Below, piece after piece: positions 1 through 4,125 of a stretch of DNA of 4,125 bases. The stretch is from a virus (Duplodnaviria > Heunggongvirae > Uroviricota > Caudoviricetes), in IMG/VR virus record IMGVR_UViG_2681813321_000001, positions 1 through 4,125 of that record. One strand, written 5' to 3'. Position 1 is the stretch's first letter. Each line of letters starts with the position of its first letter. Position numbers and translations under genes: made by a program. Below the pieces are notes generated by a model. That model saw only the letters and a list, made by a program, of their open reading frames with translations, had not been told where the DNA came from and made no database searches.

Positions 1-192
1 CTATTTCACCTTAATCTCAACATTTCGCAGCTTTAGCTCTACTGGCAGGTCTGACTTTCCTGTTAATGCTAATGCGAGATTTTCAGGAGTAATGAGAGCA
101 GTTATTGTTTTCCCCATCGCCAGACGAATAATCATTCGTATCTCGCGATCGTCACATGCTCCCGGTCGAACAATTGATATTTGTCCGTTCAT
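1..192 (-). CDS. small hypothetical prophage protein (63 aa)
   Basis: Minus-strand ORF ending with TAG at 3..1. The track start at 213 is a TTG codon; the in-frame ATG at 192..190 is preceded by AAGGAG with a 6-nt spacer and sits 1 nt after the TGA of the upstream gene (196..194), so I place the start at 192. No family recognised. Confidence 0.45.
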   Translation of the reverse strand: MNGQISIVRPGACDDREIRMIIRLAMGKTITALITPENLALALTGKSDLPVELKLRNVEIKVK

Positions 193-193
193 C

Positions 194-661
194 TCACTCT
201 CCTTTGATGCCAATGTTTACAGCCTGACAAGCCTCTTTGAGCACCCAGTCAACAGCGTCTTTCCATGCTCCGGTTTCGACTGGCGGATTTTCACTCTTAA
301 CCTGTTCATAGAAGCGCACCGCTTTAATCAATCCTTCGGGTGTCAGTGGCACAGGCTGGGCCGTGAATAACGCCTGAATTTCATAGTTCGGCCTGTCGTT
401 GCAATCCTCTTTTGTCGGTACATATTTCCAGTCACCAACCCACGGCTTCTCCTGAAAGTTCGTAACGCCTTTTCTCACGTAGCGATATCGCCATGTCACC
501 GGTTCGGCTTCCAGCGATGCCAGCGCGACTTTAAATGCGGTAAGTACGTTTTTAACCACATCGATTTTGAATACTATTTCATCACATACAAACGATTTAT
601 CGTCTACTACCGTTTCAATTCCGGTAATCGTGTTTTGTAGCCATTTGGTTAATTCAGCCAT
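194..661 (-). CDS. hypothetical prophage protein (155 aa)
   Basis: ATG at 661..659, TGA at 196..194; a long ORF on the same strand as all neighbours and tightly coupled to the next gene. Preceded by the only sizeable intergenic gap among the small genes (662-792). No family recognised. Confidence 0.6.
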   Translation of the reverse strand: MAELTKWLQNTITGIETVVDDKSFVCDEIVFKIDVVKNVLTAFKVALASLEAEPVTWRYRYVRKGVTNFQEKPWVGDWKYVPTKEDCNDRPNYEIQALFTAQPVPLTPEGLIKAVRFYEQVKSENPPVETGAWKDAVDWVLKEACQAVNIGIKGE

Positions 662-670
662 TTTTCATTA

Positions 671-686
671 CCGCCCTTTCGGGCGG
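671..686 (-). promoter_or_regulatory. GC-only 6-bp stem with GAAA tetraloop (minus strand CCGCCC-GAAA-GGGCGG) 9 nt upstream of the start codon of the 155-aa gene
   Basis: Read directly from the sequence. It overlaps the position where a Shine-Dalgarno element would sit (AAGGG is in the loop and 3' stem). Not followed by a U-tract on either strand. Confidence 0.3.
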
Positions 687-742
687 TCTCCTGATGTTCT
701 GAGAGTGCAGGAATCCCTCCGGTTAAGGATTTAATAAAATTC

Positions 743-780
743 ACTTCTGATTTAAATTTTTCAGTGTTTTGTTGTCAGGT
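743..780 (-). promoter_or_regulatory. candidate sigma70-like promoter in the 131-bp AT-rich intergenic region
   Basis: On the minus strand: CTGACA (plus coordinates 778..773), a 17-nt spacer, then TTAAAT (755..750). Matches are 5/6 and 4/6 to consensus. Weak, and by eye only. Confidence 0.2.
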
Positions 781-792
781 GGTTTATCGCCT

Positions 793-1104
793 TTATGCTT
801 CAACCTTATTTCTCAGCCATACACAAACCGGACCATCTTCAGTGTCATGAATGGAACCAATGAACCAGCCTTCACCTTCCGGGCGCTCCGGTTTCCAGGA
901 GGCAATATCGGGACCATCTGCGTCCAGATTAAAATCATCTTCATCCATAGTTCTGATGGTCCATTGAAGATTATTTCCCTCCATCCATGCGTTAAACTCT
1001 TCCGTTGAAATATGTTCTCTACCATCACAGAATTTTTCATATTCAGGATGCGTCCAGCAGCCATATTCATCACGTACTACTGGTATTTCTTTAATTTCAT
1101 TCAT
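793..1104 (-). CDS. hypothetical strongly acidic small protein (103 aa)
   Basis: ATG at 1104..1102 preceded by GGGAG with a ~7-nt spacer; overlaps the end of the upstream gene by 8 nt. By my count about 25 Asp/Glu against 9 Lys/Arg. Contains GEGWFIGS, similar to GEGWLIGW in the 120-aa protein. Confidence 0.6.
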   Translation of the reverse strand: MNEIKEIPVVRDEYGCWTHPEYEKFCDGREHISTEEFNAWMEGNNLQWTIRTMDEDDFNLDADGPDIASWKPERPEGEGWFIGSIHDTEDGPVCVWLRNKVEA

Positions 1105-1351
1105 TTCTGTTCTCCCACGTTTTCAGACTTTCACCACAGAACGGACAAAATGAAACCCGCACTGGTGATTTAGAAAATTCACCGGAACGCAACATCACCA
1201 AATCAGGGCCGCGAGTTAAACTCTCATTCCAGATTTTGTATATCAGCAGACCTTTTCGCGCCGTGTATTCAGCATCATGCTCAAGGGATTTTGCCAGTGC
1301 TGCACATGGTTCTATCTTATTGCCATTAATTTGGCATTTTGACTCACTCAC
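1097..1351 (-). CDS. hypothetical small Cys-pair protein (84 aa), possible zinc ribbon
   Basis: The track ORF begins at a GTG at 1387; I prefer the in-frame GTG at 1351..1349 because it is preceded by AAGGAGG (1364..1358) with a 6-nt spacer and forms a GTGA overlap with the upstream stop (1350..1348). The protein has C-x12-C near the N-terminus and CPFC near the C-terminus. Confidence 0.5.
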   Translation of the reverse strand: MSESKCQINGNKIEPCAALAKSLEHDAEYTARKGLLIYKIWNESLTRGPDLVMLRSGEFSKSPVRVSFCPFCGESLKTWENRNE

Positions 1352-1587
1352 TGGTTGCCTCCTTTGCGGATCTGCGCTGCGATGCACGAAAAAAAAGACT
1401 CTCGCGTATGACTGTTAAGAGCTGGCGCGAACGCCGCGTTAAGAACGGCAGCATCACAGCCGTCATCGATATAGAGCGCAATTTTTTTCTCTAGGCGTGC
1501 TTTAGCTTCCTGCAACTGCATACCCCGGCACGCACGCGGGATATACTCAGCAATTTGAGCGATAGATTTTTCGTTCTGTTTAAACAT
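1348..1587 (-). CDS. hypothetical prophage protein (79 aa)
   Basis: ATG at 1587..1585 preceded by GAGGTG; overlaps the upstream gene's TAA (1582..1580) by 8 nt; TGA at 1350..1348. No family recognised. Confidence 0.55.
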   Translation of the reverse strand: MFKQNEKSIAQIAEYIPRACRGMQLQEAKARLEKKIALYIDDGCDAAVLNAAFAPALNSHTRESFFSCIAAQIRKGGNQ

Positions 1588-1783
1588 GCTTCACCTCGAT
1601 AGGCTTGATGGTATCGATCAGCAGTCGGCGGCGAGTATTTTCTGCAAAGTGGCGGCGTCCGGTTTCTTTGTGGTAAAACTCGTTTTTTCCGACGACCCAC
1701 ATCCGCTTTGTCTGGTGCAGTTTTTTTACCTGCGGACCGTCTCGGGTGATAACAATTCCCGTATGAGTTTTTATCACGCTCAT
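1580..1783 (-). CDS. hypothetical small basic protein (67 aa)
   Basis: ATG at 1783..1781 forms an ATGA overlap with the stop of the upstream gene (1782..1780); GGAG lies ~9 nt upstream. Lys/Arg-rich (about 14 basic against 6 acidic), so possibly nucleic-acid binding. Confidence 0.5.
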   Translation of the reverse strand: MSVIKTHTGIVITRDGPQVKKLHQTKRMWVVGKNEFYHKETGRRHFAENTRRRLLIDTIKPIEVKHV

Positions 1784-2142
1784 TTCTTATTCTCCGGTGC
1801 TTTTGGCATTACTGCCCAGTGAGTGATATTGACGTTTTCAAGGTCCCCGACCTGAAATGTCCACTGCCATTCTCCGGTTTCTTTTTGTCCCCAGGTGTAC
1901 CAGAGAGAACGCCAGCCAATCAGCCAGCCTTCTCCGTTAGCATCAAATAACAGAACACTTTCATTTGCTGGCGGCAGTTCAGCTGACACTGGCATTATTT
2001 TGTTTTCCAGTGCCGCACATTTAGCTTCAAGCGCATCGAATTTACGTACCAGGTACTCAGCATTTGTTTCATTCACTTTCAGATCTCGCGGTACACATTT
2101 CCCGCGAAGAAACCCTTCCATTTCGAAAACATTCATGCGCAT
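1780..2142 (-). CDS. hypothetical prophage protein (120 aa); by position and length the yfdS-equivalent gene, with a DUF551-like C-terminus
   Basis: ATG at 2142..2140 with GGAG ~9 nt upstream; overlaps the yfdR stop (2135..2133) by 10 nt. It lies immediately downstream of yfdR, as yfdS does in CPS-53 as I recall, and has the same length. The C-terminal ITHWAVMPKAPE resembles the THWMPLPEPP ending I associate with DUF551 phage proteins; this needs a database check. Confidence 0.6.
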   Translation of the reverse strand: MRMNVFEMEGFLRGKCVPRDLKVNETNAEYLVRKFDALEAKCAALENKIMPVSAELPPANESVLLFDANGEGWLIGWRSLWYTWGQKETGEWQWTFQVGDLENVNITHWAVMPKAPENKK

Positions 2143-2669
2143 TTGCGTAACTCCGATAACTCGTTAAAACGTTCCATAAACATCCCGTAGGCATGGCCTG
2201 GTGACAGTGGAATAACTTTGAACATCTCTGTTGCCGGGATGCCTTCCAGTACAGGCCAGAAAGAGCCATCATCAAGCCCGAGATCGCGGCGTTCGGTTGC
2301 CAGCATAATGAGATCGGCATATTTCACTGGCGTGCTCATAACAGGAGGTAACCCGTATTTCTCACGGATTACGGCGTCTATTTTTTCTTCCATCCGTTTA
2401 TAGTCAGGAAGAAGTCGTTTCAGTGGCGCGGGGATGTCCTGGCAATATGCTTCTGTTGCATCATGCATTAACGCTTCAAAAGCAAATTCCTGCGGCACCA
2501 GCTGGCTGCAAAGCACCGCATGCTGGGCGACACTGTAGAAGTGTGAAAGATGTCCTGCAAAGCGACAGATATTTGAAAGGGAAACTGCGATATCGTTAAT
2601 CACGATGTCGTCTTTATTTATCTTGTCATAATAAAAATGCTTCCCGGAAAAAGTTTTAATAAATGACAT
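2133..2669 (-). CDS. yfdR: HD-domain phosphohydrolase, YfdR-like (CPS-53 prophage), 178 aa
   Basis: The protein starts [21 protein letters not shown] and carries HD-superfamily motifs (AGHLSH, then LMHDATEAY, then downstream Asp residues). The track ORF starts 9 codons earlier at a GTG (2696) that is itself part of the Shine-Dalgarno GTGGAGAAC; the ATG at 2669..2667 with GGAG 8 nt upstream gives 178 aa, the length I recall for E. coli K-12 YfdR. Confidence 0.85.
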   Translation of the reverse strand: MSFIKTFSGKHFYYDKINKDDIVINDIAVSLSNICRFAGHLSHFYSVAQHAVLCSQLVPQEFAFEALMHDATEAYCQDIPAPLKRLLPDYKRMEEKIDAVIREKYGLPPVMSTPVKYADLIMLATERRDLGLDDGSFWPVLEGIPATEMFKVIPLSPGHAYGMFMERFNELSELRKCA

Positions 2670-2918
2670 TTTGTTCTCCACGTATATGCACTGCACCGCG
2701 CTGAATTCTGGTAAAAGGAAGCCCTCACCATCCGGTGATTATTGAGTTAATTACGTTTCCATAAATGCCCCCGCAGGGGCATTTGCAGTAATGAAATCAG
2801 GCGGTGAAAGTACCAATAAAGGTTTCTACTTTGCTGTCTTTGAATTTCTCAACAAGCAGATCACGAAATTCGTTAGCCATTTCTTCCTGCAACGCTTCCA
2901 GCTGAATAATGCGCAGAA
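2246..2918. repeat. tandem direct repeat, copy 1 (673 bp): yfdR 5' two-thirds, yfdR leader/intergenic, and the 3' end of the yfdQ-like frame
   Basis: Direct comparison with 2919..3592: about 99% identical (6 substitutions plus one 1-nt indel). Begins with CCAGTACAGG (2246-2255). Confidence 0.9.
2763..2784 (-). promoter_or_regulatory. perfect 9-bp inverted repeat (AAATGCCCC / GGGGCATTT, 4-nt loop) in the yfdR leader; possible weak terminator, attenuator or processing stem-loop
   Basis: Read directly from the sequence, 13-34 nt downstream of the chimeric ORF stop and ~95 nt upstream of the yfdR ATG. On the transcribed minus strand the stem is followed by AUUUAUGG, only a short U-run, so not a strong canonical intrinsic terminator. 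Confidence 0.35.
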
Positions 2919-3342
2919 CCAGTACAGGCCAGAAAGAGCCATCATCAAGCCCGAGATCGCGGCGTTCGGTTGCCAGCATAATGAGATCGGCATATTTCAC
3001 TGGCGTGCTCATAACAGGAGGTAACCCGTATTTCTCACGGATTACGGCGTCTATTTTTTCTTCCATCCGTTTATAGTCAGGAAGAAGTCGTTTCAGTGGC
3101 GCGGGGATGTCCTGGCAATATGCTTCTGTTGCATCATGCATTAACGCTTCAAAAGCAAATTCCTGCGGCACCAGCTGGCTGCAAAGCACCGCATGCTGGG
3201 CGACACTGTAGAAGTGTGAAAGATGTCCTGCAAAGCGACAGATATTTGAGAGGGAAACTGCGATATCGTTAATCACGATGTCGTCTTTATTTATCTTGTC
3301 ATAATAAAAATGCTTCCCGGAAAAAGTTTTAATAAATGACAT
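2797..3342 (-). CDS. chimeric ORF from tandem duplication: YfdR N-terminus (141 aa) fused in frame to YfdQ C-terminus (40 aa), 181 aa
   Basis: The 5' part (3342 down to ~2929) is nearly identical to yfdR 2669..2256 (1 synonymous difference); the 3' part (2918..2797) is nearly identical to the last 122 nt of the gene at 3592..3471 (1 non-synonymous difference, Leu vs Val). The join falls in the shared 10-bp CCAGTACAGG, which encodes P-V-L in both parents. It has the same RBS and ATG context as yfdR (GTGGAGAACGAAATG). The HD motifs lie in the retained N-terminal part. Whether it is expressed or functional is unknown. Confidence 0.5.
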
Positions 3343-3592
3343 TTCGTTCTCCACTTTATATGCGCTGCACCGCGCTGAATTCTGCTAAAAGGAAGCTCTC
3401 ACCATCCGGTGATTATTGAGTTAATTACGTTTCCATAAATGCCCCCGCAGGGGCATTTGCAGTAATGAAATCAGGCGGTGAAAGTACCAATAAAGGTTTC
3501 TACTTTGCTGTCTTTGAATTTCTCAACAAGCAGATCACGAAATTCGTTAGCCATTTCTTCCTGCACCGCTTCCAGCTGAATAATGCGCAGAA
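2919..3592. repeat. tandem direct repeat, copy 2 (674 bp)
   Basis: Begins with CCAGTACAGG (2919-2928); the same 10-mer recurs at 3593-3602 immediately after the copy, giving three occurrences at every repeat boundary. Differences from copy 1 (copy-2 coordinates): 3250, 3345, 3355-3356, 3364, 3385, 3397, 3566. Confidence 0.9.
3437..3458 (-). promoter_or_regulatory. second copy of the same 9-bp inverted repeat, downstream of the yfdQ-like stop
   Basis: Identical sequence to 2763-2784, displaced by 674 bp as part of the tandem duplication. Confidence 0.35.
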
Positions 3593-4125
3593 CCAGTACA
3601 GGACGATCGCCAGTGATAATGCTGAGGCGTAATTTAAACGGACGTTCTTTCAGGCCTTCAAACGGAACGCATTTAAATTCAAATGCCACTGGCATAATGT
3701 CTTTGGTTTTCGCTTCGACAGACTCCATCAGGGAGCGTTTGCCGCTGAAGTCATTGTCTTCAAAATCAGCGGTCTGGTTTGCTTCAATTGTGATTTTACG
3801 GACTGCCGCAGCCGCTTTGGTTGCCTGAATGGTGTCACCATTAGCATCAAAGCCCACAAGGTAGTCGGCCCAGTCTTCAATCCATTCTGCCAGTGACTTC
3901 TGGGAGTTACGCTCGCCATTAACAGACAACAGAGCAGAAAACGGTGCTGTCTTTTTCAGTTTGAGGGTGGCGGTGTTATCTGCGTGACCTGGTTCATCAA
4001 TAGTACCCAGGTTAAGCACACTGACGGCTCGCATATTATCGGCATCGATAAAGCAGCGGGTGCCTTCATCTGCAAGATCTTTAGAATAACGGGTAAAGTC
4101 ATCGATGCTGGCAGTGGAAAGCGCA
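3471..4125 (-). CDS. yfdQ: YfdQ-like prophage protein (DUF2303 family as I recall), 5'-partial; upstream neighbour of yfdR
   Basis: The reading frame is open from the window edge (4124) to TGA at 3473..3471, at least 217 codons. The track start at 4034 is only the first in-frame ATG; the frame continues upstream with no stop, so the true start is outside the window. Assignment rests on position immediately upstream of yfdR plus size (K-12 YfdQ is 274 aa as I recall), not on a verified alignment. Confidence 0.7.

Follow-up and report, generated by a model that had tools for sequence, protein, structure and literature searches.

Probable import of a foreign leader allele into one copy of a tandem yfdQ-yfdR duplication in a lambdoid prophage

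The two copies of a tandem duplication in a lambdoid prophage differ at only a handful of sites, most of which lie close together in the leader preceding yfdR. This cluster is very probably the product of an import, by recombination or gene conversion, into copy A of the duplicated segment, and not of drift after the duplication. Both leaders are exact natural alleles, the background of copy A is that of copy B, the left boundary of the exchanged tract is discrete, and the event is private to the lineage. The window considered here is the whole stretch of 4,125 nucleotides (positions 1 to 4,125 of the IMG/VR virus record IMGVR_UViG_2681813321_000001), and its features are collected in Table 1. 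In the history that we propose, a 673-bp segment running from the interior of yfdQ to the interior of yfdR would have been duplicated head to tail at a 10-bp microhomology, an event that would have placed an in-frame chimera of YfdR(1-141) and the last 40 aa of YfdQ between yfdQ and yfdR. Copy B would have kept the leader native to this phage lineage. Homologous recombination or gene conversion would have replaced part of copy A, namely a tract no shorter than 52 bp and no longer than about 330-350 bp that takes in the spacer and the bases around the Shine-Dalgarno (SD) box of the intact yfdR. The incoming sequence would be a leader allele that is common in other yfdQ-yfdR prophages, and the two singleton differences between the copies would have origins of their own, in point mutations or in additional small imports.

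Matching to the annotations of close relatives identifies the window as the early-left region of an mEp460-like lambdoid prophage, with mEp460_4F5 (99.4%) and phiSTEC1575-Stx2k (99.5%) as the nearest phage records. Every long ORF is on the minus strand, and the assignments of yfdQ and yfdR are backed by Pfam. Downstream of yfdR lie small overlapping ORFs, and the genes of the region also include a yfdS-like one. Between 1348 and 2142 on the minus strand successive ORFs share 4-10 bp (the yfdR stop at 2133 and the next start at 2142; 1780/1783; 1580/1587), a layout usual for translational coupling in phage early operons; in contrast, the spacer between yfdQ and yfdR measures 127 nt. A terminator scan also recovered, on the plus strand at 2587-2611 and 3260-3284, a 10-pair hairpin with a T-rich tail that is antisense within the 5' coding part of yfdR. 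It is present in both copies, the count of such elements is not above that in shuffled sequence, and it is probably due to chance. In E. coli ECL27977 and ECL27829 (sheep), which harbor close prophage relatives, an IS1A insertion has left yfdQ as two DUF2303 fragments; this is a separate private disruption of the same gene that is involved in the duplication of the window.

Table 1. Coordinates of the duplication, its genes, the sites that differ between the copies, and the proposed imported tract
Feature	Position in window	Strand	Description
Copy A	2246-2918 (2246-2928 with microhomology)		673 bp; the downstream copy as transcribed; end of yfdQ, leader A and 5' 424 bp of intact yfdR
Copy B	2919-3592 (2919-3602 with microhomology)		674 bp; end of the intact yfdQ, leader B and that part of the chimera which derives from yfdR
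Junction microhomology	2919-2928; also 2246-2255 (yfdR) and 3593-3602 (yfdQ)		CCAGTACAGG, 10 bp
Intact yfdR	2133-2669	-	178 aa; HD-domain, YfbR-like 5'-deoxynucleotidase; leader A in front
yfdQ (DUF2303)	3471-4125, 5' end beyond the window	-	Carries 3566 C (Val)
Chimeric ORF	2797-3342	-	181 aa: YfdR residues 1-141 plus last 40 residues of YfdQ, in frame; leader B in front
Leader-cluster differences (copy A/copy B)	2672 T/3345 C; 2682 G/3355-3356 TT; 2690 A/3364 G; 2711 G/3385 C; 2723 C/3397 T		
Singleton in yfdR	2577 A (copy A, ancestral)/3250 G (copy B)	-	Synonymous, CTT versus CTC, Leu31
Singleton in yfdQ tail	2892 A (copy A, TTG Leu, private)/3566 C (copy B, GTG Val, major population allele)	-	Nearest relatives have T (ATG Met)
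Putative minimal imported tract, copy A	2672-2723	-	Five sites (T, G for TT, A, G and C) that jointly match a common natural allele
Corresponding native stretch in leader B	3345-3397	-	Identical to nearest single-copy relatives
Probable left (yfdR-side) breakpoint interval	2603-2671	-	Judged against the sampled exact leader-A donors
Right breakpoint interval, if a breakpoint exists	2724-2928	-	Sole donor/recipient difference is 2892, where copy A has a private A
Perfect hairpin	2763-2784; second copy 3437-3458	-	AAATGCCCC-CGCA-GGGGCATTT; 9-bp stem, 4-nt loop; copies identical

Both a repeat finder and pairwise alignment identify a head-to-tail direct repeat with nothing between the copies. Its period is 673 bp for copy A and 674 bp for copy B, and the repeat length, which an earlier note on this DNA had put at 673 bp, becomes 683/684 bp once the microhomology is counted. 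On the coding strand CCAGTACAGG specifies Pro-Val-Leu in yfdR and in yfdQ, and because the same tripeptide is encoded in both genes the fusion is in frame. The segment is present once in every relative, and the best genome matches cover 3452 bp, which is 4125 minus 673. Head-to-tail copies, identity between the ends and the junction, and relatives with a single copy together characterize a microhomology-mediated tandem duplication. The junction was queried with a 36-mer (AATGCGCAGAACCAGTACAGGCCAGAAAGAGCCATC), and no match was found in 5426 complete E. coli genomes, phage records, IMG/VR, GTDB representatives or JGI metagenomes; exact look-ups of 181-aa and 185-aa versions of the chimeric protein likewise returned no record. 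The duplication is private to the source of the window. The last 37 residues of YfdR are missing from the chimera, in which the YfbR-like HD region is retained (Pfam match to residues 41-104), and both of the newly derived-looking singletons, 3250 G and 2892 A, fall within its ORF.

As this structure was recovered from no other collection searched, it might be an artefact of assembly or polishing, in which reads of a paralogous yfdQ-yfdR prophage were mixed into one copy, or in which the duplication itself is a mis-join. The module is indeed often multicopy, occurring at 3509 places in 2772 E. coli genomes with up to 5 per genome. However, the 10-bp in-frame microhomology is much shorter than the k-mers used by assemblers and is typical of real illegitimate recombination. 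Furthermore, paralogous reads would also have brought in the donor markers at 2586, 2601 and 2602 (see below) and would have hit both copies equally, whereas the patch is clean on its yfdR side and confined to one copy. An artefact is hence very improbable.

The copies differ at exactly seven sites in pairwise alignment, all at the positions listed in the earlier note. Five of these, said there to fall within about 50 bp, lie inside 52 bp; when seven sites were placed at random on 683 bp in a simulation, at least five fell within 52 bp with P = 0.0022. The single change in the shared part of yfdR is synonymous, as had been stated, although this part is 424 bp (2246-2669) and not about 415 bp in length. 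The single change in the yfdQ tail is non-synonymous, Leu (TTG) versus Val (GTG), again as had been stated. It affects the first base of a yfdQ codon for which three natural alleles exist, and TTG (Leu) is also found at two other loci (L038 and L040); the combination of leader A with this Leu codon occurs in no complete E. coli genome. The G/TT difference had been placed about 10 nt upstream of the GGAG box, but it is situated 3 nt 5' of the box (CTCC at 2676-2679 on the plus strand) and 13 nt from the ATG.

The clustering (P about 0.002) does not fit uniform mutation after the duplication, as the earlier note had also concluded. The spacer is as variable as silent sites and changes in it are tolerated, which would allow for independent point mutations that arose in a weakly constrained leader after the duplication and came to be clustered by chance. 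Nevertheless, over the same period the sequence outside the repeat shows only one difference from the nearest relative (L099, described below) in 2758 bp, and the five changes exactly reproduce an existing natural allele over 96 nt. As that allele is common and the match to it exact, an origin by stepwise point mutation is effectively excluded.

To compare the leaders with natural yfdQ-yfdR alleles, as the earlier note had proposed, a 96-nt query was taken for leader A (window 2650-2745) and a 97-nt query for leader B, and each variant equals a distinct natural allele exactly. Leader A has 100% full-length matches in many complete E. coli genomes, e.g. in the intD-adjoining prophages of E. coli S88 and O103:H2 12009, with 291 records in the ≥99% band. 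Leader B too has 100% full-length matches, with 121 records in the same band. The closest single-copy loci all carry leader B, namely two from complete genomes (L001 and L002) and two from IMG/VR (L027 and L022, of which L099, IMGVR_UViG_2695420705_000029, and L097 are the respective whole contigs). L099 and the window collapsed to a single copy differ at three positions in 3452 bp (48, 3250 and 3566), and this near-identity indicates that copy B is the native configuration with two single changes. Copy A differs from the family of nearest relatives at 2892 as well as at the five leader sites. The suggestion that a patch had been acquired from a divergent allele by recombination is well supported by these comparisons, as leader A is an exact natural allele and the rest of copy A has the background of copy B and the nearest relatives.

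The joint between leader A and this background appears to be peculiar to the window. The copy-A stretch 2584-2726 (143 nt) has no exact match in IMG/VR, GTDB representatives or JGI metagenomes, and complete E. coli genomes match it at 99.3% at best, whereas the control stretch of copy B, 3257-3400 (144 nt), has 29 exact matches in IMG/VR. Over longer spans no natural allele equals copy A, the best matches being 99.4% (1780-2928), 99.2% (2400-2928) and 99.6% (2650-2928). As the combination of the background with leader A was never sampled, occurring in no complete E. coli genome, it is parsimony that identifies copy A as the converted copy. The donor would probably have been a co-resident or infecting relative, and the exchange would have been carried out by phage Red/Rad52-like enzymes or by host RecA.

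Three exact leader-A alleles (L085, L086 and L087) show about 19 further differences from the recipient family in the shared part of yfdR. Copy A is of the recipient type at all of these, including 2586, 2601 and 2602, where the donor states are C, A and T respectively, and the absence of all these donor markers from copy A shows that the tract is short. The yfdR-side breakpoint could extend to 2578 if the donor resembled L118 (NZ_CP023165.1), which is recipient-like at 2586 and 2601. On the other side, the position equivalent to 2892 is C in all leader-A alleles and A in copy A; since this only informative marker carries a private third allele, the right end is not placeable. These limits correspond to the range of tract lengths given at the outset.

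We infer the order of duplication and exchange as well, and two timings fit: copy A may have been converted after an intramolecular duplication, or the duplication may have arisen in one step between two slightly different genomes. The second course, which is possible but on the whole unlikely, would involve an illegitimate exchange at the 10-bp microhomology between two closely related but non-identical phage genomes in one cell, one parent having leader B and the other being already a leader-A recombinant. All seven differences would then be parental and no later conversion would have occurred, though leader-A recombination would still be involved, having taken place earlier, in a parent with a single copy. 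The instability of tandem duplications and the near-identity of the flanks to L099 both point to a young structure with little time for later events; on the other hand, a two-parent origin needs a cell that contains two near-identical phages. At six of the seven sites only naturally segregating alleles are seen, and at 2892/3566 one of the two alleles is natural, yet the parental haplotypes were found in no collection searched (the best matches were 99.8% for copy B plus flank and 99.4% for copy A plus flank) and the copy-A joint is likewise without an exact match anywhere searched. Natural alleles of the kind needed do exist. L083 (NZ_CP171869.1) is a natural single-crossover recombinant at the 5' end of yfdR, which switches from recipient- to donor-type between 2577 and 2586, and L118 carries G at the 2577-equivalent, a near-A leader and C at the 2892-equivalent.

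L118 unites donor-type states that the two copies of the window hold separately. It is compatible with a variant in which a single donor left complementary patches, the donor-type alleles being found in copy B at the two outermost sites and in copy A at the five between them; however, this pattern consists of three blocks only, which are too few to build upon. When the whole window is compared with L099, eight of the nine differing sites are inside the duplicated 1367 bp (binomial P = 9e-4), and only position 48 is outside. This enrichment becomes marginal if events are counted (four of five, P = 0.044). The site-based enrichment could be read to mean either that the duplicated segment attracts exchange or that the copies come from two parents.

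The import of leader A into copy A, which we prefer as an explanation, was placed in a population context using an alignment of 88 single-copy loci, of which IMG/VR supplied 80 and complete genomes 8. Each of the seven sites is a standing polymorphism among these loci, and nearly all combinations of neighboring markers are present, indicative of free reassortment. In the earlier note, substitutions scattered randomly among single-copy loci were to count against a recombinational patch. Many combinations do indeed occur, but they reflect the pervasive recombination of standing variants and not random new mutation. Nucleotide diversity (pi) in sliding windows is highest, at up to 0.09, in the spacer that separates the hairpin from the SD box; in the patch it is 0.078, against 0.085 and 0.060 at the third codon positions of yfdR and yfdQ, respectively. 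The leader is simply unconstrained, and the clustering is due to a short tract and not to any special property of the leader. Selection on the leader, which the earlier note had allowed as an alternative source of the clustering, is not borne out, given that the diversity of the patch approximates that of silent sites and that the GGAG box, its position at -10 and the energy of the anti-SD duplex (-6.4 kcal/mol) are the same in leaders A and B. Nor is it necessary to invoke a hot spot of recombination or diversifying selection there, since leader diversity equals that at third codon positions and the window contains no Chi site.

A further explanation holds that the foreign leader was kept as it alters how strongly the intact yfdR is translated compared with the chimera, e.g. 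by resetting the dose of YfdR once the duplication had occurred. YfdR binds DnaA, and overexpression of yfdQRST inhibits the initiation of replication (PMC4776307), which implies that dose could matter. The leaders differ at position -3 (A in leader A, G in leader B) and in the predicted probability that the SD box is unpaired, which in a 140-nt context is 0.33 for A and 0.08 for B, values that depend on the model. Such an adaptive divergence is improbable all the same, in view of the identical SD sequence, spacing and anti-SD energy and the silent-site-like diversity of the leader. Neither leader folds better than shuffled sequence (z -1.5 to +0.7), no promoter-like site is present in 2100-3700, and no leader match is found in Rfam at E <= 1. 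An effect on YfdR dose is conceivable, with the predicted accessibility as a weak lead, but the leader change is most likely neutral.

A structured RNA or a promoter in the leader was rejected on the same absence of Rfam matches, promoter-like sites and folds better than those of shuffles. A compensatory hairpin involving the changes at 2711 and 2723 was likewise discarded, inspection having shown that one of them keeps a pair and the other breaks one. Still less probable than an adaptive change in this one prophage is a wider proposal, by which lambdoid prophages would maintain and shuffle a small number of leader alleles that differ in function and determine the dose of YfdR, located in the spacer from the hairpin to the SD box; this lineage would then have kept a foreign leader ahead of the intact yfdR to offset the additional chimeric copy. 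The predicted accessibility of the SD box is the only hint of such dose-setting alleles, and the silent-site-like diversity speaks against them.

The perfect hairpin bordering this spacer begins 13 nt past the yfdQ stop, has no U-tract on either strand and matches no Rfam family. It is strongly conserved in the population alignment, with a pi of 0.014 as against 0.07 in the adjacent spacer. This element could act in stabilizing or processing the transcript, or could be a weak terminator.

The window thus offers a clean, small example of the exchange of a very short tract in lambdoid prophages, with both alleles present in one molecule and one breakpoint bounded to less than 70 bp. It also illustrates that in young prophage duplicates the differences between copies need not measure the time since duplication. 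It implies no new mechanism, element or function and is of low general interest.

Both processes are ordinary ones, of which this is a private instance: a microhomology-mediated duplication, and short-tract recombination between lambdoid alleles. The genes belong to the same families and stand in the same order, with a DUF2303 YfdQ followed by an HD-domain YfdR, as in the yfdQ-yfdR-yfdS-yfdT cluster of the E. coli K-12 cryptic prophage CPS-53 (PMC4776307). They represent another allele in another prophage, and K-12 and all sampled relatives have a single copy without the chimera. In common with other microhomology-mediated tandem duplications, which arise when short direct repeats recombine illegitimately or slip during replication, the copies lie head to tail with no inserted bases, a 10-bp identity is found at the ends and the junction, and the relatives are single-copy; the present case differs in that the 10 bp specify one and the same tripeptide in yfdQ and yfdR, giving an in-frame chimera, and in that the copies are non-identical. 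Relaxed homologous, or homeologous, recombination by Red/Rad52-like recombinases generates mosaicism in lambdoid phages and permits uptake from prophages (PMC2327257, PMC3945230). The case described here resembles such mosaicism in showing a short diverged tract in an otherwise unchanged background, boundaries that would lie in sequence common to both alleles, and markers that reassort among relatives. It differs in that neither donor nor recombinase is visible in the window, and in that the tract was received by one of the two copies in a private tandem duplication, in which the native and the imported alleles stand side by side.
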